DNA from: a phage
Direction: 5' to 3' (one strand)
Sequence record: PQ724392.1
DNA length: 64,000 nt
Each line of letters begins with the position of its first letter. Within the stretch, counting starts at the first letter, position 1. Below are positions 2,351-44,567 of this stretch, in pieces. The position numbers were made by a program, and so were the translations under genes. The notes beneath the pieces are model-generated. The model saw only the letters and a program-made list of their open reading frames with translations, made no database searches and was not told the origin of the DNA.

Positions 2351-3295
2351 TTAATAAAATTCAGCAATATTTGCAGTTAGTTTAGACAGACCAGACTTAA
2401 CAAAGTAAGGATAAACTTTACTTTTGGCTGGGATAACGTAGTTATTATATCGTTCTAAGATTGAAGCAGATATTTCCGTTGGGATAAAGTCCATATCAAT
2501 CAACAATTGGTTTTCACAGAATCTATTATATTGCTCTTCTGTTAAAAGCGTTTTCAAAACGTCATGGTCGTAATAGTTGAGTGCAATTTGTTCAAGCTCA
2601 GCTGCGCGGGTCGGTGGAGTGCGTTCACCTTCTTCACGAGTGTAATAAAAATCACCGCGAACCTTGATGCTTGACACGTTATCTTTTTTGTCACCTTTAA
2701 CAACCTTTGTCACGCAATCCATAAGAGCATCGCCTGATTTAGTTTTGACATATTTTTTCTGCATCGGTGACCATTGTTTCACCCCAGGGAATTTATGTAA
2801 CTGGGTAAAGTCGCCATCCGAAGAAACAATCATAACCGGATGCCCGAGACCAGTGAGCAACTTCGTTAATACTGCAATATGGTCGTCAGCCTCAATTTTA
2901 TCCATATTCATCACGATGTAAGGCATATGTTTTTCCATTTCATCAATGATAATGTGCATGGCAGCATGTAGGCCTTCCCAATCAAATTGTGACTCTTCAC
3001 GAGCTTTTGCACGGTTTTTCTTATAATAATAAGATTTCGTGCGTCGCCAATAACCATTCTTCGAATTATCAACACAAATAATTGGGACTGTATAACCGAG
3101 CTTTTTAAACTGTACAATGTTTTTTCTGATAGAGTTCAGAACCAGATGTCTGGTCATTGCGGTTGTCACCTTAGGGAAGCCCGCGTCTTTACCGAATTCC
3201 TGGAAGGCTGCTGCCATGATAAGCTGGCTAAAATCGAGTAACAGAAAACCATCTTTTTGACGGTCTTCTTCAGGGAGTAAAAAATCTAAATTCAT
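2351..3295 (-). CDS. rnh: RNase H (5'-3' exonuclease, FEN family)
   Basis: 314-aa ORF; acidic-cluster motifs (VCVDNSK, EADDHIAV, SSDGDF) typical of T4 RNase H / flap endonuclease; position beside gene 34 as in T4. Confidence 0.9.
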   Translation of the reverse strand: MNLDFLLPEEDRQKDGFLLLDFSQLIMAAAFQEFGKDAGFPKVTTAMTRHLVLNSIRKNIVQFKKLGYTVPIICVDNSKNGYWRRTKSYYYKKNRAKAREESQFDWEGLHAAMHIIIDEMEKHMPYIVMNMDKIEADDHIAVLTKLLTGLGHPVMIVSSDGDFTQLHKFPGVKQWSPMQKKYVKTKSGDALMDCVTKVVKGDKKDNVSSIKVRGDFYYTREEGERTPPTRAAELEQIALNYYDHDVLKTLLTEEQYNRFCENQLLIDMDFIPTEISASILERYNNYVIPAKSKVYPYFVKSGLSKLTANIAEFY

Positions 3296-3323
3296 ATGAA
3301 CCTCTGTTCAATTAGTTGACTCG

Positions 3324-3391: not shown

Positions 3392-6300
3392 ATGGCCGAT
3401 ATTTTAAAACCAGCATTCAGAGCAACATCCGGTCTCGATGCTGCTGGTGAGAAAGTCATTAATGTCGCAAAAGCTGATTACTCAGTTTTATCAGACGGCG
3501 TTAACGTAGGTTTCTTTATAGAAGAAAACACAGTTCAACAATATGATGCAACACGCGGATACAAAAAGAACTTTGCAGTTATTAATGATAACCGTATTTG
3601 GGTTGCTCAACGTGATATTCCGGCACCAGCTGGAGCATTTACCCCTCAGTATTGGTTAGCAACTCGTACTGACCCTAAATGGGAAACTGTTGCATCTCCA
3701 ACTCGTCAGCTTAGCTCCGGGGAATTTATCGCAGTCGACTCAGCTGCAAGCTTTACCACATTTACCTTACCTCCGAACCCGACTGATGGTGATACCATCG
3801 TTATTAAAGATATCGGCGGTAATACCGGTTATAATGAAATTAAAATCCAGTCAAGCAACGTGCCTGGTCAAGGTAACCAAAAGATTGTTCGCTTTGGTAA
3901 TCAGTATTCAGAAGTTTTAATTACCAAACCATTCTCTTATAACATGCTTATCTTTTCAAACCGCTTATGGCAATTTTGGGAAGCAGGTAACGAAGAACGT
4001 GGTATCAGAGTAGAACCGTCGACCGGACGTTTCCATGCACAAGCTGGCGACTTTATTATGCGTCGTTATACAACTGGTGCACCGATTACTTTCATTCTTC
4101 CTAAGTATGCAAACCAGGGTGATATTGTCAAATCTGTTGATATCGATGGCATGGGGCCAACGTTCCACCTGATGGTTGAAACCTTTGACACCAGTTCCAG
4201 TCTTGGGAAAGCTGGCCAGCATCAAATGGAATTCCGTACCACAGGTGATGGTTTCTTCGTTTATAATGCTACCGAAAAACTCTGGTATGTTTGGGACGGT
4301 GATTTTAAAACTCGTCTTCGCGTTATTCGCGACAGCGTTAAACTTTTACCAAACGAAAGTGTCATTGTATTTGGCGAAGATAACTCAACTCCGGCAACGA
4401 TTAATATCGATTTGCCAACTAATGTTTTGCAAGGCGATATTGTTAAGATTGCGCTGAACTATCTCCGTAAATCGCAGACTGTTAATATAAGAGCTGCTGT
4501 TGGCGATAAGATTGCAACTGACATTAAATTGCTGCAATTCCCTAAACGTTCCGAGTATCCACCAGATACAACTTGGGTGATGGTTGATTCATTGACCTTT
4601 AATGGCAACATCAGTTATACTCCGGTTATTGAATTATCATATGCAGAAGATGCAGTGTCTGGAACAAGTTATTGGGTTGTCGCTCAGAACGTCCCGACTG
4701 TCGAACGAGTTGACTCATTAAATGATTCCACGCGTACACGTCTTGGTGTTATTGCTCTGGCAAACCAGACTCAGGCAAACGTTGACCATGAAAATAACCC
4801 AGAAAAAGAACTCGCAATTACCCCTCAGACTTTAGCCAACCGTGTTGCTAAAGAGAACCAACGAGGCATTGCCAGAATCGCAACGACTGCCCAAGTAAAT
4901 CAGAACAGTGATTTTGCATTTGTTGATGATGTAATTATTTCTCCGAAAAAACTCAATGAACGTACGGCAACAGAAACGAGACGTGGACTCGCAGAACTCG
5001 CCACACAGCAAGAAACCAATGCGGGTGTAGATGATACCACAATTATAACTCCAAAGAAACTGCAAGCTCGCCAGGGCTCAGAATCGCTATCTGGTATTGT
5101 AACTTACGTTTCAACGACTGGTGCAACTCCTGCTGCTTCGCGTGAATTAAATGGTACAAACGTTTATAATAAAAATACGGTTAATCTGGTTGTTTCTCCG
5201 AAAGCTCTTGACCAGTACAAAGCTACTTACACTCAGCAAGGCGCGGTTATTCTTGCGGTTGAAAGTGAAGTAATCGCTGGTACTTCACAATCTGGCTGGG
5301 CAAACGCAGTCGTTACTCCAGAAATGTTGCATCGCAAAACTGCTCTTGATTCCCGTATCGGTTTAATCGAGATTGCTACTCAGGTTGAAACAGATGCAGG
5401 AACCGATTATACCAGAGCTGTGACTCCTAAAACGTTAAATGACCGTAAAGCATCAGAAACGTTAACCGGCATAGCCGAGATTGCTACGCAATCAGAATTT
5501 GATACTGGAACTGATGATACTCGTATCTCAACTCCATTAAAAATTAAAAATAGATTTAATAATACTGCTCGTACTTCTGTTAATGCATTAAGTGGTTTAG
5601 TAGAAACAGGGACGCTCTGGGACCATTATAGCCTGAATATTCTTGAAGCAAATGAGACTCAACGTGGCACAGCAAGATTAGCAACTCAGGGTGAAGTCAA
5701 TACTGGCACTGACGATAAAACAATCGTTACTCCGCTTAAATTGATGTCGAAAAAAGCCACTGAAAACGCCGAAGGTATTGTTCGCATTGCGACAAACGCA
5801 GAAGCAACAGCAGGCACATCAAAAGTCTTGGCCATTAGTCCGTCTGCGCTGAAATATATTGTCCAAACAGAAACAACTTGGGAAGCATCTGAAACACTGC
5901 GTGGATTTGTTCGTTTATCTTCCGGTGCAGCTACTTCGGCCGCAACTACAACGACGGGCGCGGGATTTACATATGCAAATGGTGTGTATACCCCGGACCC
6001 AAGTAAACTGGTTAGCTATGCGAAATCTGGATATGCAGTTTCGCCTTACGAATTAAACCGCGTATTGCAAAACTTCTTACCAATAAATGCGATGGCTGTT
6101 AATGCTGAAAAACTGGATAACCTCGATTCAACCCAGTTTATTCGTCGTGATATTGCTCAGACTGTTGAAGGTGTATTAACCCTTACTAAGCAGACAAATA
6201 TCTCTGCTCCGGTTGTATCGACGAGCACTGCGGTGTTTACTGATGTAACGGCTGGTACTTCGACGTTCGGAACTGTGAATGTTGTTAATGGAACTAACAA

Positions 6301-7348
6301 GTGGAAAATCACTGCTCCTTCCACCGGAACGACAATGACTATTGGTGATACGACTAACGTATTGACATTAAACACCGCCTCGGGTAATGCTGCTGTATTG
6401 AACAACCTCAGCGCCGGAAACGATGTTCAAGCCAAAAATAATTACGTTCTAAATGGTCGTACTATTGCAACTACAACGGGCGAAGCTTCTGGTGCAACTT
6501 TGTCTCTGGGTGATAACTCACAGAATTTAGTGCTCAAAACTCTTGATGCTGGCAATATCATAGCAAATGGTGGCGGTGCATTTAAAGTTCTGACCGAGAA
6601 AAACGCAGTAGAAATTGTTGATAGAAACTTTGTTAACCAGGCTGGTGATACAATGTCTGGTGTACTCCGTGTAAATGCTCCGGTCCGTGTATTTGGTACA
6701 AAACCGAGTCTTATTGCACAAGCTCCGACTGCTGATACTGTTGGCTTCTGGTCTGTCGATATCAATGATGAACCGACTTATAGCCAGTTCCCTGGTTATT
6801 GGACAATGAAGTTAAAACGTCAGGTAAACATTGATACGGTTCAAACTAAACCTGCTGGGGTAACTGATGAAGTTTGGAATGCTTCTGGTTGGTTAACTGA
6901 AAACGGAACTTTTGCCTCGCCCGCTATTCGTTATCGTACTGATGATGGTACACTCGGTGATGAAGTATTAGGTAGCTCCGGACAGAAACTGCGCGGAACC
7001 TGGTTTGACTATTCAGTTCGCGACAAACAAATTAAATATCCTGGTACATTGACTCAGTTTGGTAATACGCTGGATTCGTGCTATCAAGATTGGGTTTGTT
7101 ACCCAACTGAATTGAACGGTGGTACTATTCGTTATACTCGTACGTGGCAGAAAAATAAATCTGCATGGACGACTTTCGCAATGGTTTACACCGCGGATAA
7201 CCCTCCGTCTGCAGAGGATGTTGGCGCATTACCGGCTGACAACACAACGATGGGGAACTTAACCATTCTTGATTGGTTGCGTATCGGTAACGTGCGTATC
7301 ATCCCAGACCCGACCACTAAATCCGTTAAGTTTGAATGGATTGAATAA
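3392..7348 (+). CDS. 34: long tail fibre proximal subunit gp34
   Basis: 1318-aa ORF on plus strand, first gene of the 34-38 fibre operon; internal ~30-aa repeats (ATQ.E.N.GTDDT.I.TPK.L) typical of T-even fibre shafts; late promoter TATAAATA upstream. Confidence 0.9.
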   Translation: MADILKPAFRATSGLDAAGEKVINVAKADYSVLSDGVNVGFFIEENTVQQYDATRGYKKNFAVINDNRIWVAQRDIPAPAGAFTPQYWLATRTDPKWETVASPTRQLSSGEFIAVDSAASFTTFTLPPNPTDGDTIVIKDIGGNTGYNEIKIQSSNVPGQGNQKIVRFGNQYSEVLITKPFSYNMLIFSNRLWQFWEAGNEERGIRVEPSTGRFHAQAGDFIMRRYTTGAPITFILPKYANQGDIVKSVDIDGMGPTFHLMVETFDTSSSLGKAGQHQMEFRTTGDGFFVYNATEKLWYVWDGDFKTRLRVIRDSVKLLPNESVIVFGEDNSTPATINIDLPTNVLQGDIVKIALNYLRKSQTVNIRAAVGDKIATDIKLLQFPKRSEYPPDTTWVMVDSLTFNGNISYTPVIELSYAEDAVSGTSYWVVAQNVPTVERVDSLNDSTRTRLGVIALANQTQANVDHENNPEKELAITPQTLANRVAKENQRGIARIATTAQVNQNSDFAFVDDVIISPKKLNERTATETRRGLAELATQQETNAGVDDTTIITPKKLQARQGSESLSGIVTYVSTTGATPAASRELNGTNVYNKNTVNLVVSPKALDQYKATYTQQGAVILAVESEVIAGTSQSGWANAVVTPEMLHRKTALDSRIGLIEIATQVETDAGTDYTRAVTPKTLNDRKASETLTGIAEIATQSEFDTGTDDTRISTPLKIKNRFNNTARTSVNALSGLVETGTLWDHYSLNILEANETQRGTARLATQGEVNTGTDDKTIVTPLKLMSKKATENAEGIVRIATNAEATAGTSKVLAISPSALKYIVQTETTWEASETLRGFVRLSSGAATSAATTTTGAGFTYANGVYTPDPSKLVSYAKSGYAVSPYELNRVLQNFLPINAMAVNAEKLDNLDSTQFIRRDIAQTVEGVLTLTKQTNISAPVVSTSTAVFTDVTAGTSTFGTVNVVNGTNKWKITAPSTGTTMTIGDTTNVLTLNTASGNAAVLNNLSAGNDVQAKNNYVLNGRTIATTTGEASGATLSLGDNSQNLVLKTLDAGNIIANGGGAFKVLTEKNAVEIVDRNFVNQAGDTMSGVLRVNAPVRVFGTKPSLIAQAPTADTVGFWSVDINDEPTYSQFPGYWTMKLKRQVNIDTVQTKPAGVTDEVWNASGWLTENGTFASPAIRYRTDDGTLGDEVLGSSGQKLRGTWFDYSVRDKQIKYPGTLTQFGNTLDSCYQDWVCYPTELNGGTIRYTRTWQKNKSAWTTFAMVYTADNPPSAEDVGALPADNTTMGNLTILDWLRIGNVRIIPDPTTKSVKFEWIE
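4810..5930 (+). repeat. coding repeats within gp34 (about nine degenerate ~30-aa units)
   Basis: recurring peptide pattern G.A..ATQ.E.NAGTDDT.I.TPKKL in the translated ORF; boundaries approximate. Confidence 0.5.
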
Positions 7349-9210: not shown

Positions 9211-12200
9211 ATGGCTACTTTAAAACAAATACAATTTAAAAGAAGTAAGGTTGCCGGCGTTCGTCCGGCGCCAACAGTTCTTGCTGAAGGTGAACTGGCT
9301 ATCAACCTGAAAGACCGCTTACTTTTTACTAAAGATGACACCGGCGCCATTATCGACCTTGGTTTTGCCAAAGGCGGTAATATTGATGGTAATGTTATTC
9401 ATAACGGTAATTACAATCAAACTGGTGATTATACTCTTAACGGTGTATTTACTCAAATTGGTGATTTCAATCTCAATGGCATTGCTCGTGTAACTCGTGA
9501 TATTATTGCGGCAGGTCAGATAATGACCCACGGTGGTGAACTTATTTCTAAGAGTGCCTCAACTTCTCACCTTCGTTTCTTTGATGGCAATGACCGTGAA
9601 CGTGGCATTATCTTTTCTCCTAATAATGCAGGGGCAACCAACCAAGTAGTTAATATTCGTGTACAAGATTATTCTACCGCAAGCGAAAGCACTTATGCAT
9701 TTTCAGGCGCCGGTGTATTTTCTTCTCCTGTAGTTTTTGGATGGAAATCTGTATCAACTCCCGTAATTTATACTAATAAAGTTATTACAAATGGTAAAGT
9801 TGCCGGCGATTATGATATCTATTCATTGGCCGATAATACCCCATTGGCAGAAAGTGAAACAGCTATTAACCATCTCCGTGTTATGCGAAATGCTGTAGGC
9901 GCGGGTATATTTCACGAAGTTAAAGATAATGACGGAATAACCTGGTATGCTGGAGATGGATTGGACGCTTATCTTTGGTCATTTACATGGTCAGGTGGAT
10001 TGAAAGCCGGTCATTCTATTTCCGTAGGCACCCCAGGTAACTCTAAAGGATATTCTGAATTAGGAAATGCTTCAATTGCTCTTGGCGATAATGACACCGG
10101 GCTAAAATGGCATCAGGATGGATATTTCCATACAGTAAACAACGGCACGAGAACTTTCCTGTACAGCCCAGCAGAAACCACCAGTCTTAGAAAAATGGTT
10201 ATGGGGTATTCTACTAACGGAACCGATTTAACTACTCCTCCTACTGAAAACTATGCTCTTGCTACTGTTGTTACTTACCATGATAATAACGCGTACGGTG
10301 ACGGTCAAACTCTTTTAGGGTATTATCAAGGCGGTAATTATCACCACTATTTCCGTGGTAAGGGCACTACAAACGTTAACACCGCTGGCGGTTTGTTAGT
10401 TACGCCTGGTAATATAGATGTTGTTGGTGGTTCGGTTAATATTGATGGTAGAAATAATGCTTCTACGCTGATGTTTAGAGGTAACACAACTGGTAGTAGT
10501 TCAGTTGATAATATGACTATCAGCGTTTGGGGTAATACCTTTACTACTGTCGATGGCGACCGTAAAAACGTAATGGAAATATCTGATGCCACCAGCTGGA
10601 TGCATTATATTCAGCGTAAGACTGATAATACCGTTGAGGCCGTATTAAATGGACAACAAACTATTAACGAAAATCTTGTTGTCAAAAAAGATATTTTAGT
10701 TGATAAGGCGGTCCACACCGCCGGCGAAATTACTACAAGTGCCGTTAATGGGCTCCGCATCTGGAACAACGATTATGGAGCCATTTTTAGACGCTCAGAA
10801 GGCAGTCTTCATATTATTCCTACTGCATTCGGTGAAGGCATGTCCGGCGATATTGGTCCACTTCGCCCGTTTAGCATGGCTTTAGATACTGGTAAAGTCA
10901 CTATTCCAGATTTACAATCAAGTTACAATACGTTCGCAGCAAACGGTTATATTAAATTTACTGGTCACGGAGCAGGCGCCGGCGGTTATGATATTCAATA
11001 TGCACAAGCAGCTCCTATTTTCCAAGAAATTGATGATGCAGCAGTAAGTAAATATTATCCTATTGTTAAGCAGAAATTCTTACAAGGAAAAGCTGTTTGG
11101 TCTTTAGGTACTGAAATTAATTCCGGGACTTTTGTTTTACACCATCTTAAAGAAGACGGGACCGGAGGTCATACCTCAAGATTTAATGCTGATGGTACAG
11201 TTAACTTCCCCGATAACGTGCAGGTTGGTGGTGGTGAAGCTACTATTGCTCGAAACGGTAATATCTGGTCCGATATTTGGAAAACGTTTACTTCAGCAGG
11301 CGATGTAACTAATATTCGCGATGCTATTGCCTCCCGTGTGGCCAAAGAAGGTGATACGATGACCGGCCGCTTAACTCTTAATGCAAACTCGGATGCTATT
11401 GTTATTAACAGTGCTGCAACCGAATCTGGTTATGTGAAAGGACAAAAAGCTGGTGTTGATAACTGGTATGTAGGCAATGGCGGCGCTGATAACGCCCTAT
11501 CGTTTTATAGTTTCCGAACTAATTCAGGCGTTAATATTCATAATAGTGGGGAAATTGCTTTAGCTCCTCAAGGGTCGGATACTTTTTATTTTAATAGGGA
11601 CCGTCTTTATATAAAGGGTTCACAATGGGCCGCACACCAGGCTGGCGATTGGGGAAACCAATGGAAGCAAGAAGCCCCTGTGTTTGTAGATTTTGGTAAT
11701 GTTGGTAATGATAGTTATTATCCGATTATCAAAGGAAAATCTGGTATTACTAACGAAGGATACGTATCCGGTGTAGATTTTGGTATGCGCCGCATCACAA
11801 ATACATGGGCGCAAGGTATTATTCGTGTAGGTAACCAGGAAAACGGTTCTGACCCGCAAGCTATCTATGAATTCCACTCTAATGGTACTTTTTATGCTCC
11901 GAGCTTACTTAAGAGCAACAGAGTATCGGCTGGCGGTGGTGACCCTGTATGGGGTGGACCGTGTATCGTTATAGGTGATAACGATACCGGTTTGCTCTGG
12001 GAAGCGGACGGTATTTTCAACGCATATGCAAATGGTCAAGGGGTGTTTAGTTTTAGAGCCGGACTTGCCCAGACATTTGGTAACGTTAACTTACACTGTA
12101 ATGCGGGTATGTATGTTCGTGATAACATTGATGTTAACGACGTTTATATTCGTTCTGATATTCGTTGTAAGTCGGAAATTAAGCTTATTAAGAATGCTCA

Positions 12201-12471
12201 AGAGAAATCTAAACTCTTAGGTGGTTATACTTATCTGCTTAAAAACTCTGTCACAGATGAAGTTAAACCGTCTGCCGGTTTAATTGCTCAGGAAGTTCAA
12301 GAAGTATTGCCTGAACTTGTGACTGAAGATAAAGAGACTGGCTTACTTCGTTTAAACTATAACGGTATTATCGGTTTAAATACTGCTACTATCAACGAGC
12401 ATACTGATGAAATCAAGGAATTGAAATCTGAAATTGCTGAGTTGAAAGCATTAATTAAATCATTATTATAA
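9211..12471 (+). CDS. 37: long tail fibre distal subunit gp37 with C-terminal intramolecular chaperone (peptidase S74-like) domain
   Basis: 1086-aa ORF; N-terminus [32 protein letters not shown] matches recalled T4 gp37; C-terminus [12 protein letters not shown]...[15 protein letters not shown]...LNYNGIIGL resembles the autoproteolytic chaperone domain of endosialidase-type fibres. Confidence 0.9.
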
Positions 12472-35248: not shown

Positions 35249-35863
35249 TTAGTTCAAAACAGTTAAATGCCAAACAGTATACAGGTTATTCAATGGGTGT
35301 GTTTCAATCAAGTCTACGCGGAGCGTAGTCCCAGCGGGAAACATAAACTCATCTTCATCATTAACCAGGTGCAAGTTTGACTTCCTGGTTGCTTCTGGAT
35401 ATGCACCATTGAACTCTTCAGGAGGAGCACCGCAAATCATTTTGAAGATTGCTTCCTGATAGTTATACGCATATGGTGCATTGTTTATACAGAAAATGTT
35501 CCTTGTGCCATAGAAACTGTATGATGCAAAATTTCTTGCAACCTGCCAGTCCCTGGAAAAACTCATTACACGATTGAATTCAATTGTTGCGCCAACATAT
35601 CTTAAATCTTCCAGGTATTCCATGGTTTTCTTTGATATACCACGGAACAATGCTGCCGGCGGCGCAGTATTCAGATTGTTGCGGATAATCCTGGACAAGT
35701 CTTCTTGAATCAGGTCGGGTTTATTTTCCATACACTGCCAGAGTACTGATTGCTCATTATCTGTATAAAGAGCATCAATCTCCGCTTGACATTGGTTACG
35801 AAAAGACTCACTAGAAGCGGCAGTGTCAATAATTCCATTCAAAACGTCATCAGTGTACAGCAT
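35249..35863 (-). CDS. modA: ADP-ribosyltransferase (ModA-like, R-S-EXE class)
   Basis: 204 aa from ATG with GAGGA SD; motifs ALFRG (Arg), SFSRD (S-x-S) and EDEFMFP (E-x-E); position after srd as in T4. Confidence 0.65.
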   Translation of the reverse strand: MLYTDDVLNGIIDTAASSESFRNQCQAEIDALYTDNEQSVLWQCMENKPDLIQEDLSRIIRNNLNTAPPAALFRGISKKTMEYLEDLRYVGATIEFNRVMSFSRDWQVARNFASYSFYGTRNIFCINNAPYAYNYQEAIFKMICGAPPEEFNGAYPEATRKSNLHLVNDEDEFMFPAGTTLRVDLIETHPLNNLYTVWHLTVLN

Positions 35864-35894
35864 TTTATTATCCTCATCAGTAGTTGATAGGAAC

Positions 35895-35924
35895 ATCTTA
35901 ACGTGTCTTATTGCTCTTGTACAC
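35895..35924 (-). promoter_or_regulatory. T4-type early promoter (weak -10)
   Basis: minus strand TGTACA - ~18 nt - TAAGAT, then conserved leader; upstream of the ModA-like gene. Confidence 0.4.
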
Positions 35925-36468
35925 AGTCAAGAACATAATAATCACCAACAAATCCAGCATCAACTACCACGAATTTCTGGTCAACTGGAACAAACCATTC
36001 AAGCTCAGAATCAATCATGTCCATGTATTCTTCGCGCCTTAATGTAGCTGCCCGGACGGAACCAGAAGCTGTATTGAAGAATTCCAGTGGAACGTCAAGC
36101 GCGATTTTGCGCATCGCATCATGGTAACAAAAAGCTTTGGTCTGATTCAATCTGACGATAGTCCTTGTCACATATTCCATTGCAGCAAAATCCCTGGCAA
36201 TACCATAGTCTTCTGTAAAGGAGGTTACCCGTCCAAATTCAAAAGGTTGCATTGATTCTTTTGCTTCATCTAACAAATCAATCTCTTGCTGGGTTACTCC
36301 GCGCCACAAGACTGTATCGGGTATAGACAACCTTGACTTGATGATTGAGTTGACATTTGAATGCAAGGTCTTATCAACCTTTGATGTGCGGCATTCAAAT
36401 AATGAAGCTATCTCCATTTCACTAAATTTTAACTGGTTGGGTTCGGTATCAGATTTGATGATGTTCAT
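35908..36468 (-). CDS. modB: ADP-ribosyltransferase (ModB-like, R-S-EXE class)
   Basis: 186-aa ORF; motifs VLWRG, TSFTED, SELEWFVP; tandem with the ModA-like gene. Confidence 0.6.
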   Translation of the reverse strand: MNIIKSDTEPNQLKFSEMEIASLFECRTSKVDKTLHSNVNSIIKSRLSIPDTVLWRGVTQQEIDLLDEAKESMQPFEFGRVTSFTEDYGIARDFAAMEYVTRTIVRLNQTKAFCYHDAMRKIALDVPLEFFNTASGSVRAATLRREEYMDMIDSELEWFVPVDQKFVVVDAGFVGDYYVLDCVQEQ

Positions 36469-41388: not shown

Positions 41389-41430
41389 ATTAATCTCGCT
41401 TCATGAAGGCATTAAAAATTTGGTCGTCAA
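41386..41430 (-). repeat. 45-bp direct repeat, copy 2 (gene junction cassette)
   Basis: catattaatctcgcttcatgaaggcattaaaaatttggtcgtcaa. Confidence 0.8.
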
Positions 41431-41830
41431 CTGAATATACAGGGGTTTCCAGAAGTTTCAAAAGACTGTTTTTAATGTACTTACCCGGGATACCCATATT
41501 AACAATACTGTCATTCAATTCATTATCAGGGTTGATGTCTTTAAATTCAAACCCATCAAATTCAACCTTGTCAGGAATACCATCAGCGAAAAAATAAACC
41601 AATTGGTGCATTGTATTGCGCGAAAATAATTTAGACTTGACCGCAATAAGTTCTTGCCAATGGTTTAATTCTTTGTTAAGAAGTTTATGAGCAAACGTAA
41701 TTCTATTATCACTATCAACAAGAAAATAACCCAGGTATTGAATGGGGTCGTCGCTCCAAAACATCCTGTATGCTTGTGCATTTTGATTTTTACAACGAAG
41801 TTTTTTGATAACTAAATTTCTGTTAATCAT
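41390..41830 (-). CDS. hypothetical protein (shares C-terminal tail DDQIFNAFMKR with previous gene)
   Basis: 147 aa from internal ATG immediately after the sp stop; 3' end lies in second copy of the 45-bp repeat. Confidence 0.45.
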   Translation of the reverse strand: MINRNLVIKKLRCKNQNAQAYRMFWSDDPIQYLGYFLVDSDNRITFAHKLLNKELNHWQELIAVKSKLFSRNTMHQLVYFFADGIPDKVEFDGFEFKDINPDNELNDSIVNMGIPGKYIKNSLLKLLETPVYSVDDQIFNAFMKRD

Positions 41831-41831
41831 T

Positions 41832-42125
41832 TTATTCACCTGTAACCCATTGAACAATTTTGCTATTGTCAAATGAAGCATCGCAATACAGAACATAGTT
41901 ATACTGCATAACGCCACCAGAAGTCAATTGGTCAGATACTTCTTTAACCATATCAGGGCGGTCACGTTTAGTTATGTTCATGATATCAGCATAAATCTGG
42001 TGTTCAACATCAGTCTGGTCAGCAGTCATAGACCACTCACAAAGGTCTTTATCAAGTCCAGCGGTGACAGGTGCTGTGCCACAAGATGCTACGGCAAAAA
42101 TTGCTGCGATAATTAACTTTTTCAT
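41832..42125 (-). CDS. sp: spackle-like secreted protein (superinfection exclusion / lysozyme inhibitor)
   Basis: 97-aa ORF with N-terminal signal peptide MKKLIIAAIFAVASCG; size and position between 61 and 41 as for T4 sp (61.3). Confidence 0.6.
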   Translation of the reverse strand: MKKLIIAAIFAVASCGTAPVTAGLDKDLCEWSMTADQTDVEHQIYADIMNITKRDRPDMVKEVSDQLTSGGVMQYNYVLYCDASFDNSKIVQWVTGE

Positions 42126-42183: not shown

Positions 42184-42525
42184 TTATTTTTCACCTTCAA
42201 CTGAAAAACCGGTCAAGTTGTAATATTCAGCACGTGCAATATGAAGAGCTGCTTCAATATCAGTAAGGCAGATTTCTTCATTTAACAGTTGCGCTTCAAC
42301 GGTCAAAATCAGATTACGCAATGCGGTACCCTTACGCATGTCTACTTTATGAATTAGCTTGTCATCAACAAAAGCTTCAACCAGCGCATTATAGTTATCA
42401 GCAGTCTTCTGGACATACCAGTGAATACCTGCGGGGTGGAACATGCTAGAACGTTCAAAAGATGGTACACCAACAGCACTCACTTTGATTGTTACTTTTA
42501 CGCGGTCTTCTGGATTAAAATCCAT
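42184..42525 (-). CDS. Dmd-like paralogue
   Basis: 113-aa ORF; segment MF....W.VQ.....NYNALVEAFVDDK......R aligns with the Dmd core (NNALVKAFVNDNKVFEYDYR) of the adjacent gene. Confidence 0.5.
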   Translation of the reverse strand: MDFNPEDRVKVTIKVSAVGVPSFERSSMFHPAGIHWYVQKTADNYNALVEAFVDDKLIHKVDMRKGTALRNLILTVEAQLLNEEICLTDIEAALHIARAEYYNLTGFSVEGEK

Positions 42526-42738
42526 TTAGATTTCCTCAGATAAGTGGATGCGATAATCATATTCAAAAACTTTATTGTCATTAACAAAGGCTTTCACCAG
42601 CGCATTATTCACTTCCGCATACTGCACTGTAACCCATTCAATCATATTTTGGTCACTAACATCCAACATGGTTTCTTTGGTAAACATATTACCATTTTCA
42701 AACCAACCAATAAATACTACGTTCTCTAATTTATACAT
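42526..42738 (-). CDS. dmd: Dmd antitoxin (inhibitor of RnlA/LsoA-type toxins)
   Basis: 70-aa ORF; VVF.GWF.N..MFTKE........W.T.QYAEVN.ALVKAF..D.KV.E.D.R matches recalled T4 Dmd (60 aa); location between 61 and 41. Confidence 0.7.
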   Translation of the reverse strand: MYKLENVVFIGWFENGNMFTKETMLDVSDQNMIEWVTVQYAEVNNALVKAFVNDNKVFEYDYRIHLSEEI

Positions 42739-43056
42739 TTAGATTTCCTCGCAGAAGGCCCAGGCAGCGTGATAAACTGTTGCGCCTTTAGTATCATTTA
42801 AACAAACCACGTCAACCGGTGCAATCACACGATAAAGACGGGGTTCTCCTCCATATGAGCGAGCTGCTCTTCCTGCATAGATACGCGCCAAACCAATATC
42901 TTCAGTAAAAAACACACGCCCTAAATTTTTCTTACGTCCAACTTCTGACAGAACACCAGTTGCATCAGGAGGACAAAGCATATTTTGGATTCCAGCATTA
43001 GAGCTTGACCCATGATAATAAACTTTGTATTCTGCCTTGCAATCAATGGTTTTCAT
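42739..43056 (-). CDS. hypothetical small protein with H-G-S / Y / E motif arrangement
   Basis: 105-aa ORF between dmd and gene 41, a position I recall as empty in T4; YYHGSSS, ARIYAGRAARSY, GGEPRLY. Confidence 0.45.
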   Translation of the reverse strand: MKTIDCKAEYKVYYHGSSSNAGIQNMLCPPDATGVLSEVGRKKNLGRVFFTEDIGLARIYAGRAARSYGGEPRLYRVIAPVDVVCLNDTKGATVYHAAWAFCEEI

Positions 43057-43094
43057 TTTATTCTCCAGTAGTTGATAGGGTCATTATAACATAA

Positions 43095-43119
43095 GAAAAA
43101 GGGGCTGTAAGCCCCTTTT
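43095..43119 (-). terminator. rho-independent terminator after gene 41
   Basis: minus strand GGGGC-TTACA-GCCCC followed by TTTTTCTT; a TATAAT -10 follows immediately. Confidence 0.65.
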
Positions 43120-43127
43120 AAAATATT

Positions 43128-44567
43128 TTAAAATTTCATTTGAGCAGCAAGGTCGTCCAGGTCGCTCCTGTTGACCCTGGTTTGTCGATTCATTTCAGCC
43201 TGGCGATTCATCTCACCGGTGGCTTCTTTAACCGTAGGACCTTGTTTAGGAGCTGAATCATCATCAACCTCATACCAGCGCTGATTACCTTTCTTAACAC
43301 CCATCTTGAATTTATTATAGTAGTTCTTATCACCATAACGAGACTTAAGCTGTTTGATTAACTGCAGCCCCATTTGAGCGAATTCTTCGGTCTCAACAAC
43401 ACCCAACATAAAGTCAGCTGTATGAGCAATACCAAAGGATTCTGCGATATCAGCCATATCAATCTCAGCTGCAACGTTCGCGCCCCTGGTTGTCTGCGCT
43501 GCAGTCCACAGGACCACATTTTTCTCGACTGCCAGACCACGAAGTTCTTCTGCAACCATCTTAATCAGACCGTAACTATTTTCGGTAAACGTTTTCAGTC
43601 TTGAGCTCGCACAGATTGCCAGGTAGTCAACAATAATCACATCCGGCACAAACCCTTGCTTCAGCTTGTACTCGTTCAGTAATGCACGGAAGGTGTCCGC
43701 ATGAGCACCGCCAGTTGGATATTGTTTTATTTTCAGAGTCCCAAGAGTCCCGGAAGCACGCCATTTTTCCATCTTAGCTTTATATTCTGCCCATGATATA
43801 TGACCTTCATCAATATCATCCAGAGACACATCCAGCAAGTTGGCATCAATACGTTTGGCACATACTTCTTCGGCCATTTCCATGCTTATATAAAGCACGT
43901 TATGACCAGTCTGAAGATAGTCAGCGGCTAACGAACAAAGTCCTAGAGATTTCCCGACGTTGGTCCCAGCCAGTAAAACGTTTTCTGTACCATACTCAAC
44001 TCCACCCTTCGTGATTTTATTCAGGATGTTAATGCGGAACGGAACCTTTTTCGATTTGTTCAGATAAGTCTGGAATCGAGCTTCGTAATCGTTTAACCAG
44101 TCATGGCCCAGTGCAGAGTCAAAACAGATGGACAATGCATCACGCATGATGTCAGGGATAGCACCGATATCCGGGATTCGTTTATCACGTTTATCTTTCG
44201 GAAGTTCGGCATTACTCTGGATTTCGATAATCCTGGATGTGGCATTGAACATCGCAGACTTCTGTACATACTTCTCGGTTTCTCTGACCAACCATTCCTG
44301 GTCTTCTGGAGTATCGGCCAGGACTCCTAAGAGTTTCTTTGTGCCTTCGTATTCAACTTCAGAAAGGTCAGAACTGTCGAGCGCGATATCAAGTGCAGTC
44401 TTAGTTGGCACCGCCTGATATTCTTTTACGTGTTCGTTAATCGTATTAAAAAGGGTCTTCGCTGGACCCTTTTCAAAATATGTGCTATTCAGATATGGCC
44501 AGACTTTAACAAAATATTCCTTGTTAAAGAGTAGCTGGGATAAAATAGTTTCTACCACTTCCACCAC
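43128..44567 (-). CDS. 41: replicative DNA helicase gp41 (DnaB family)
   Basis: 479-aa ORF; Walker A AGTNVGKS, Walker B IIVDYL, arginine-finger region; length as T4 gp41. Confidence 0.9.
   Translation of the reverse strand: MVEVVETILSQLLFNKEYFVKVWPYLNSTYFEKGPAKTLFNTINEHVKEYQAVPTKTALDIALDSSDLSEVEYEGTKKLLGVLADTPEDQEWLVRETEKYVQKSAMFNATSRIIEIQSNAELPKDKRDKRIPDIGAIPDIMRDALSICFDSALGHDWLNDYEARFQTYLNKSKKVPFRINILNKITKGGVEYGTENVLLAGTNVGKSLGLCSLAADYLQTGHNVLYISMEMAEEVCAKRIDANLLDVSLDDIDEGHISWAEYKAKMEKWRASGTLGTLKIKQYPTGGAHADTFRALLNEYKLKQGFVPDVIIVDYLAICASSRLKTFTENSYGLIKMVAEELRGLAVEKNVVLWTAAQTTRGANVAAEIDMADIAESFGIAHTADFMLGVVETEEFAQMGLQLIKQLKSRYGDKNYYNKFKMGVKKGNQRWYEVDDDSAPKQGPTVKEATGEMNRQAEMNRQTRVNRSDLDDLAAQMKF

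Follow-up and report, generated by a model that had tools for sequence, protein, structure and literature searches.

A minimal ADP-ribosyltransferase-fold protein, related to Arr and encoded next to dmd in a T4-like phage

The 64,000-nucleotide stretch of phage DNA analysed here (sequence record PQ724392.1; referred to as the window) encodes on its minus strand, between the genes for the gene 41 helicase and Dmd, a 105-residue protein that is very probably an NAD-binding protein of the ADP-ribosyltransferase (ART) fold. Though divergent, it is genuinely related to Arr, with a fold that is equally close to the NAD+-binding lobe of Tpt1/KptA. With slightly better than even confidence we propose that it acts as an immediate-early NAD+-dependent effector of the ART type, a reading that comprises both catalysis and a role early in infection. 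The underlying open reading frame (ORF; 42739..43056, starting with ATG in the ORF listing of the window) is a genuine conserved gene: tblastn detected it in 610 phage records, in 606 of them at a coverage of at least 80%, with homologues that are 53–99% identical, and the protein matches phrog_2110, a family of unknown function, from end to end (E 1.3e-58). The plus-strand ORFs that overlap it are short and without support.

The first-pass annotation, which had been made from the sequence of the window, recognised in this ORF the segments YYHGSSS (residues 13–19), IYAGRAARSY (59–68) and GGEPRLY (69–75), all of which are present in the translation, and read their order as the H-Y-E signature of diphtheria-toxin/PARP-type enzymes in a possibly minimal ART-like fold. 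As an H...Y...E order is expected by chance in 105 residues, the weight of the assignment rests on homology and fold and not on the motif pattern.

An AlphaFold2 model based on 36 homologues (mean predicted local confidence, pLDDT, 84.9; predicted template-modelling score, pTM, 0.77) consists of strand β1 (residues 13–18), two short helices, strand β2 (48–51), a helix (54–68) and strands β3–β6 (72–78, 84–87, 94–97 and 100–104), and thereby displays the split six-stranded β-sheet NAD+-binding fold of the ART superfamily. Residues 1–10 are modelled with low confidence and are missing in 96-residue homologues. In the fold ranking of the model, CARDS, OspC3, PARPs, pertussis-like toxins, RES and DarT come behind the closest folds. 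Foldseek was in agreement and returned Arr (probability 0.99, 0.97 and 0.84) and KptA (0.99) as the sole credible matches. The first-pass annotation had suggested ART, Tpt1/KptA and 2H-phosphoesterase folds for such a comparison; the former two were recovered, whereas no 2H-phosphoesterase fold was among the structural matches of the model. Among viral predicted structures, Foldseek matched the protein's own family, a PcfJ-like protein, several phage G proteins, a putative phage RNA 2'-phosphotransferase and a 94-residue siphovirus protein named 'Ms Rifampin ADP-ribosyl transferase'.

The sequence profiles point in the same direction. Searched exhaustively with phmmer, 1.8 billion representative proteins yielded 162 relatives. 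A profile of 36 close T4-like homologues found no match in the PDB, and the broader 63-sequence family profile, compared with the whole PDB, retrieved Arr chains only (E 0.0027). The Pfam model Arr-ms (PF12120) is matched by 32 of the 63 diverse domain sequences (best E 9.5e-11), and in several large relatives the homologous stretch scores 26.9, 27.5 and 29.4 bits at a gathering cut-off of 25. Alignment of the family profile by hhalign to an Arr alignment, retrieved with the Arr-2 sequence and composed of members named NAD(+)-rifampin ADP-ribosyltransferase in their source, gave a probability of 96.6% (E 5.5e-10) over residues 5–84. The minimal ART-like fold is thus borne out by model, structural matches and profile alignment. 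The kinship with diphtheria-toxin/PARP-type enzymes has to be replaced by one with Arr and the Tpt1/KptA NAD+ lobe as nearest relatives, and the H, Y-x10-Y, E signature of the former group is not found in the window protein.

The segments that are expected to line the NAD+ site are located as follows, with HGS, SEVGRKKN, FFTEDIGLARIY and GATVYH confirmed by re-translation:

43006..43014, minus strand: H15-G16-S17 (HGS), the H-G-[ST] motif at the end of β1, aligned with H19-G20-T21 of Arr-ms and corresponding to H101-G102-T103 of Tpt1
42925..42948, minus strand: S37-E38-V-G40-R41-K42-K43-N44 (SEVGRKKN), the conserved β1–β2 loop, with an E-x-G-R common to Arr
42877..42912, minus strand: F49...Y60 (FFTEDIGLARIY), the Phe of β2 and the Tyr that follows after ten residues, with F49 aligned to Arr Y49
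42868..42870, minus strand: R63 in the IYAGRA helix, placed by manual alignment
42769..42786, minus strand: G91-A92-T93-V94-Y95-H96 (GATVYH), the entry of β5, with T93 at the presumed canonical catalytic (E/D/Q) position

Conservation was counted in 98 aligned sequences, and position 93 also in 36 T4-like proteins and in 13 giant homologues of more than 600 residues. H15, the conserved His expected at the end of β1, and Y60 occur in 98/98, G16 is invariant, E38 is found in 97/98, R41 in 94/98, F49 in 96/98 (Tyr in 2) and R63 in 87/98 (Lys in 10); T51, G69, G70 and G91 are conserved in about all sequences. In Tpt1, H101 and T103 hydrogen-bond the adenosine ribose (2'-OH) of NAD+, and Arr Y49 is needed for NAD+ binding. 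F49 and Y60 provide the β2 aromatic residue and the second aromatic residue about ten positions further on, and keep the classical Y-x10-Y spacing of the nicotinamide-stacking pair, except that Phe substitutes for the first Tyr. Such a substitution does not preclude catalysis, because AcrIF11, an active phage ART, is reported to have the signature H-F-H-D. The basic cluster of the E38-R41-K42-K43 loop might bind the pyrophosphate of NAD+ or an anionic acceptor, and R63 may be the counterpart of Arg139 in the NAD+ phosphate cage of Tpt1, although hhalign is ambiguous there and Arr has no such residue. The H-Y-E assignment of the first-pass annotation accordingly survives for H15, G16 and Y60 but not for Y68 and E71, the tyrosine-type pair being F49-x10-Y60 and not Y60-x7-Y68. 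Y68 varies between F, L, Y, W, K and I. As catalytic Glu, E71 (E/K/N/S/T/Q/D/R in the family) and E103 (variable outside the T4-like clade) were both rejected.

One alternative, in line with the annotation in some GenBank records, is an orthologue of Arr (PF12120; PDB 2HW2, 9IAF and 9IBA) that ADP-ribosylates rifamycin-type antibiotics. In sequence no other relative is closer, and the two proteins, both unusually small for ARTs, share the H-G-T motif, the E-x-G-R loop, the aromatic position of β2, the helix after it and a G-G/R-G turn ahead of β3. However, the homology spans only Arr residues 12–89. The window protein is about 45 residues shorter, lacks the SN[YF] motif, has Phe (F49) in place of Arr Y49, and carries an R-K-K-N-L insertion and R63, both absent from Arr. 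It ends 21 residues after the aligned part and consequently has no counterpart of the C-terminal rifampin-binding region (about residues 85–143), in addition to missing the catalytic residue D84 in the DPN[VL] motif. With the curated cut-offs for Arr (PF12120/NF033144) the window protein remains unscored, and its relatives reach about 26 bits compared to the NCBIfam equivalog (rifampin_ARR) cut-off of 130. Orthology with Arr is therefore highly improbable and, in view of the architecture, effectively refuted. The label is carried by the homologue of Klebsiella phage vB_KM5a1-KLB25 (PP556864.1, locus 3001–3318), annotated as 'rifampin ADP-ribosyl transferase'. The missing rifampin-binding half and the scores below the cut-off identify this label as an over-annotation of the phage homologues, a point of practical relevance as in some therapeutic-phage records it reads, spuriously, as an antibiotic-resistance gene.

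The second structural relative, the NAD+ lobe of Tpt1/KptA (PDB 9LD3, 6E3A and 7KW9), corresponds to the window protein in size (about 97 residues) and inventory (six strands and three helices), in H-G-T, V-x-Φ-[ST]-x-D, an Arg-bearing helix and G-x-P-V before β3, and in having no canonical catalytic Glu. A Tpt1-like nucleic-acid enzyme, which alone or with an RNA-binding partner removes or ADP-ribosylates terminal or 2'-phosphates on RNA or DNA (repair after host anticodon nucleases or end-capping), is consistent with these likenesses, with the basic R-K-K cluster and with candidate counterparts of the Tpt1 arginine cage (R121, R139 and R140) in R41/R47 and R63. Fusions of homologues to 2H or NUDIX domains mirror the KptA-2H and KptA-Nudix logic discussed in PMC9503650, and in Slopekvirus about 1.4 kb separate the ART gene from RNA ligase 2. 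Yet only about 12 residues precede the HGS motif in the window protein, which leaves no room for the N-terminal winged-helix RNA lobe with the Arg-His...Arg part of the essential Arg-His-Arg-Arg tetrad, so that three of its four catalytic residues are absent. Moreover, the second His of the H-H-h signature is replaced by Phe, the β1–β2 loop is longer, helix α6 of Tpt1 is missing, the profile similarity is weak (see below) and the neighbourhood of the ART gene is not conserved. We therefore regard this alternative as unlikely.

Several findings weigh against an active NAD+-dependent effector and, in part, against its placement. Searches with the window protein as single query revealed no match in Pfam (E ≤ 10), PDB sequences, NCBIfam or PADLOC, and hhalign to four Tpt1 NAD+ lobes gave 30% (E 5.5e-4), a weak similarity with the core motifs in the same register. 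The alignment with Arr stops at residue 84, before the invariant E-D-D-P-N of Arr, and the DPN motif with D84 is absent from the window protein. Where ARTs of the H-Y-[EDQ] and R-S-E clades carry a catalytic Glu, Asp or Gln at the start of β5, the window protein has T93, a position assigned on the basis of strand order and family variation and not of superposition. The β4–β5 loop comprises only about 6 residues and would seem to offer little for recognition of a macromolecular target. Finally, no biochemical or experimental work on any family member was found in the literature. The Arr profile matches together with the fold evidence nevertheless place the protein in the ART superfamily, despite the lack of a direct sequence match.

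Concerning catalysis, a non-catalytic binder, i.e. a degenerate ART serving as sponge or decoy for NAD+ or for an immune signal that is a nucleotide or derives from ADP-ribose, has to be considered. Position 93 is occupied by T52/E18/S14/N5/D4 in the 98 sequences (E or D in 22/98), and the T4-like clade contains no acid there (T19/S16/G1 of 36). The very strong conservation of the NAD-site residues beside a minimal acceptor loop would also fit a binder, as would the small size and early expression, which are properties of known phage sponges. On the other hand, relatives with Glu at this position (18/98 sequences, and 9/13 giant homologues with a G-T-E-V motif) look catalytic, their motifs being otherwise almost identical; Tpt1, Arr and the H-Y-Φ PARPs are active without the canonical Glu; and the fusions to NUDIX and 2H domains suggest processing of a product. 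On balance, we judge a purely binding function to be fairly unlikely.

For the preferred reading, an ART-type effector with catalytic activity, we propose the following scenario. A free-standing minimal NAD+-binding core of about 95 residues would be transcribed right after infection from its own T4-early-type promoter. NAD+ would be held at the adenosine ribose by H15 and S17, at the pyrophosphate by the E38-x-G-R41-K-K loop and R63, and at the nicotinamide and its ribose by stacking onto F49 and Y60. Subsequently, nicotinamide would depart and an acceptor supplied by the target would capture the ADP-ribosyl oxocarbenium. Owing to the Thr/Ser at the β5 position and the near lack of an acceptor loop, a strongly nucleophilic or self-activating acceptor is most likely, which might be a phosphate or hydroxyl group of a nucleic-acid end, a nucleotide or a small molecule, in analogy to Tpt1 and Arr. 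Alternatively, an acidic side chain could serve as acceptor through substrate-assisted catalysis. The protein would thereby serve host takeover or counter-defence early in infection, as the free-standing version of the same domain that virion-injected polyvalent proteins carry.

The timing assumed in this scenario is suggested by the signals at the locus, which comprises the following elements:

42739..43056, minus strand: minimal ART-fold protein, 105 residues, supported by ORF, homologue, model and profile evidence
43063..43066, minus strand: ribosome-binding site GGAG, 7 nt 5' of the ART ATG, read directly
43083..43111, minus strand: promoter of the sigma-70/T4-early type, CTTACA, 17-nt spacer, TATAAT and TG extension, 10/12 match
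43097..43119, minus strand: intrinsic-terminator-like hairpin with a 10-bp stem and a T-run, just 3' of the gene 41 stop
43128..44567, minus strand: gene 41, replicative helicase, upstream neighbour of the ART ORF (context)
42526..42738, minus strand: dmd, antitoxin against RnlA/LsoA, identified by Pfam Dmd (E 4e-20)

The terminator hairpin of gene 41 and the promoter of the ART gene overlap, the -35 hexamer CTTACA being formed by the loop and the descending stem of the hairpin, and such a compact terminator–promoter arrangement recurs 5' of the ART gene in other T4-like lineages with different sequences. Most related loci carry GTTTAC...TG.TAnnnT upstream, though the upstream regions differ in sequence. 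Counted with a simple pattern (GTTTAC...TAnnnT), an early-type promoter lies within 110 nt upstream in 31/59 homologous loci compared to 3.8% of control windows drawn from the same 59 loci, and in 30 of the 31 promoter-bearing loci the -10 element ends 23–38 nt before the start codon. The promoters in 31/59 loci imply that the ART gene is typically the first in an immediate-early unit, wherever it is located. In the window, as judged from the promoter and the terminator, it appears to be the first gene of a short early unit that continues into dmd; the stop codon TAA of the ART ORF directly abuts the ATG of dmd, and the two ORFs are probably co-transcribed.

This adjacency, correctly noticed in the first-pass annotation, raises the question of whether the ART protein and Dmd form a toxin and antitoxin of a phage type II pair. 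Such a pairing was indeed proposed by Iyer, Burroughs, Anantharaman and Aravind in 2022 (PMC9503650, section 3.7.1) for a 'p0068' ART and Dmd; the p0068-like family is listed there among the most frequent viral ARTs, with Dmd as its immediate partner in phages of Escherichia, Shigella and Salmonella. The abutting ORFs in one transcription unit and the same adjacency in 10 IMG/VR loci and many Escherichia phage records speak for it. However, Dmd is detectable within 4 kb in only 10/57 IMG/VR ART loci, and the immediate neighbours of the ART gene in the 57 loci belong to 23 unrelated clusters downstream and 22 upstream; a conserved adjacent immunity or antitoxin gene was rejected in view of the 23 different downstream clusters. 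Of the phage records, 798 contain Dmd, nearly all of them from phages of Escherichia, Shigella, Yersinia and Salmonella, and 610 contain the ART gene, at least 260 of which belong to Klebsiella, Acinetobacter, Aeromonas and Vibrio phages. These largely disjoint host distributions imply that most carriers of either gene lack the other, with the reservation that tblastn could overlook divergent copies of a protein as short as Dmd. A general co-occurrence is therefore not found in the 57 IMG/VR loci or in the phage records. Furthermore, Dmd already has a known host target, RnlA, and in T4, where the 41–dmd junction alone was scanned, the two genes adjoin directly with no ART gene between them. 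Insertion of the ART gene 3' of gene 41 explains the adjacency equally well: in 13 loci, of which some lack Dmd, the ART gene is preceded by that for gp41. Besides the 10 IMG/VR loci with Dmd, 8 have the ART gene directly after gene 41 with other genes downstream, and the remaining loci lie in unrelated neighbourhoods. The toxin–antitoxin interpretation is thus quite unlikely, and the data favour a chance juxtaposition by insertion into the 41–dmd junction over an obligate pair.

The window belongs to a T4-like Gaprivervirus and is, over 2 kb, 96% identical to Escherichia phage EAWsc9 and 95% to VR20. The gene order around the ORF is uvsX-40-41-[ART ORF]-dmd-[113-residue ORF]-spackle, and the surrounding 41–61 interval is a hyperplastic, anti-defence region (dmd, spackle). 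An early host-modifying or anti-defence function, as raised in the first-pass annotation, would fit this context. In T4 the interval reads dmd-61.4-sp-61.2-61.1 and in the present phage ART-dmd-dmd-like-sp, followed by other genes; tblastn detected no match to T4 61.2 in the equivalent locus of EAWsc9, and in related phages yet other small genes have been exchanged in. The 113-residue ORF (42184–42525, minus strand), directly 3' of dmd, resembles the Dmd of the window over its first ~64 residues (BLASTP 31% identity, E 2e-6), with a Pfam Dmd score below threshold (E 0.0017) and a C-terminal extension of about 50 residues; it has the appearance of a diverged paralogue of dmd in tandem, possibly with another toxin of the RnlA/LsoA type as its target. 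A 175-residue ORF (41390–41917, minus strand) overlaps the end of spackle by 86 nt, for which reason its true start is probably internal. Its EAWsc9 equivalent (438 nt) is annotated as 'serine/threonine protein kinase', and no Pfam match was found in it.

The ART gene is distributed over phages of Escherichia (216 records), Klebsiella (116), Acinetobacter (68), Aeromonas (62) and Vibrio (14), as well as Enterobacter, Shigella, Cronobacter and further hosts. It is located directly 3' of gene 41 in Gaprivervirus, Mosigvirus-like and Karam-like groups, elsewhere in the 41–61 region in Acinetobacter phages and near RNA ligase 2 in Slopekvirus. A few GenBank records (Acinetobacter phages Konradin and Abraxas, Pantoea phage Phynn) name the product 'putative ADP-ribosyl transferase', and the passages of a recent T-even transposon screen retrieved by term search do not mention the gene. 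Among metagenomic sequences, a 136-residue homologue is found in a jumbo-phage-like setting (contig L063; regions 10640–12411 and 6001–6411) together with a 2556-residue fused RNA polymerase β/β' with a LAGLIDADG insertion, a cREC_REC protein and a PAAR protein, and another stand-alone homologue (P0123) is encoded on a 546-bp contig.

The window protein has a single domain, and its family also includes 55 multi-domain homologues of 190–3900 residues, among them modules of large polyvalent proteins. The partner domains are ART-PolyVal (8), NUDIX (3), DUF7178 (3), GNAT, Toprim, lambda-type portal, minor tail, LPD23, CHAP, ddrB-ParB and 2H/Acb1-like. Polyvalent proteins of phages and conjugative elements are thought to be injected as invasion begins (Iyer et al. 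2017, PMC5512222). The recurrence of the domain in these injected proteins argues that it is probably a widely used effector of the first minute. The NUDIX domain in all three cases (P0128, P0161 and P0185) and the 2H/Acb1-like domain (P0125) follow immediately C-terminal to the ART-like domain after a linker of 30–50 residues, and P0185 is a simple ART-like plus NUDIX protein of 310 residues. This direct succession is a weak hint that the product is an ADP-ribose derivative which is soluble or can be removed, and the fusions suggest that its production and processing are coupled. A more far-reaching conjecture, to which we attach only a small though appreciable chance, is that the family represents the smallest known free-standing ADP-ribosyltransferase (core of about 93–96 residues), whose Thr/Ser clade would place ADP-ribose onto a non-protein acceptor (a nucleic-acid phosphate end or a nucleotide or ADP-ribose-derived immune signal) immediately after infection and thereby disable a host defence, while the fused NUDIX and 2H domains would clear the product. 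If true, ADP-ribosyl transfer by a clade with Thr or Ser in place of Glu would be a chemistry new among phage effectors. The identity of the acceptor could add a new mechanism of host takeover or anti-defence and set a lower size limit for a working ART, and the protein, which is short, soluble-looking and equipped with clear candidate active-site residues, is easily accessible to biochemistry.

The ART superfamily is well known and the family had been flagged computationally before, so that the protein is not categorically new. The p0068 family shares with it the direct pairing of an ART with Dmd, and its high frequency is consistent with the 610 records, whereas PMC9503650 places p0068 in the H-Y-[EDQ] clade and the window member reads H-F-T; the two families are presumably the same, a match made by description and context and not by a reference sequence. 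ART-PolyVal (PF18760; PMC5512222) resembles the present family in its occurrence in the same kind of giant multi-effector proteins, 8/55 of which carry both domains, and in the predicted logic of effectors acting at the start of infection. It differs as an H-Y-D family with a separate Pfam model, and the window protein is a stand-alone early product as opposed to a domain packaged with the virion. In AcrIF11 (PDB 6KYF), the phage/plasmid anti-CRISPR ART, targets are recognised by an additional helical region, and a catalytic loop with Asp/Glu (D115/E116) is conserved; it shows no detectable sequence similarity to the window protein and differs in hosts and context.

T4 is the textbook case of ADP-ribosylation by a phage, with the three ARTs Alt, ModA and ModB. 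Two adjacent ORFs of the window (35249–35896 and 35908–36468, minus strand; 215 and 186 residues) carry the R...S-x-[ST]...E-x-E-type motifs expected for such enzymes, FRGIS/SFS/EDEFMF and WRGVT/SFT/ELEWFV, with no Pfam match above threshold (only a weak DRAT, E 0.007). The separation of the 105-residue protein from these ModA/ModB-type enzymes, already drawn in the first-pass annotation, is sustained. Alt, ModA and ModB have in common with it that they are ADP-ribosyltransferases of T4-type phages used in host takeover, the role which we propose for the window protein, but they belong to the R-S-ExE clade, are about twice the size and have no sequence relationship to it. Many T4-like phages thus carry a further ART-fold protein, much smaller than and unrelated to Alt, ModA and ModB.

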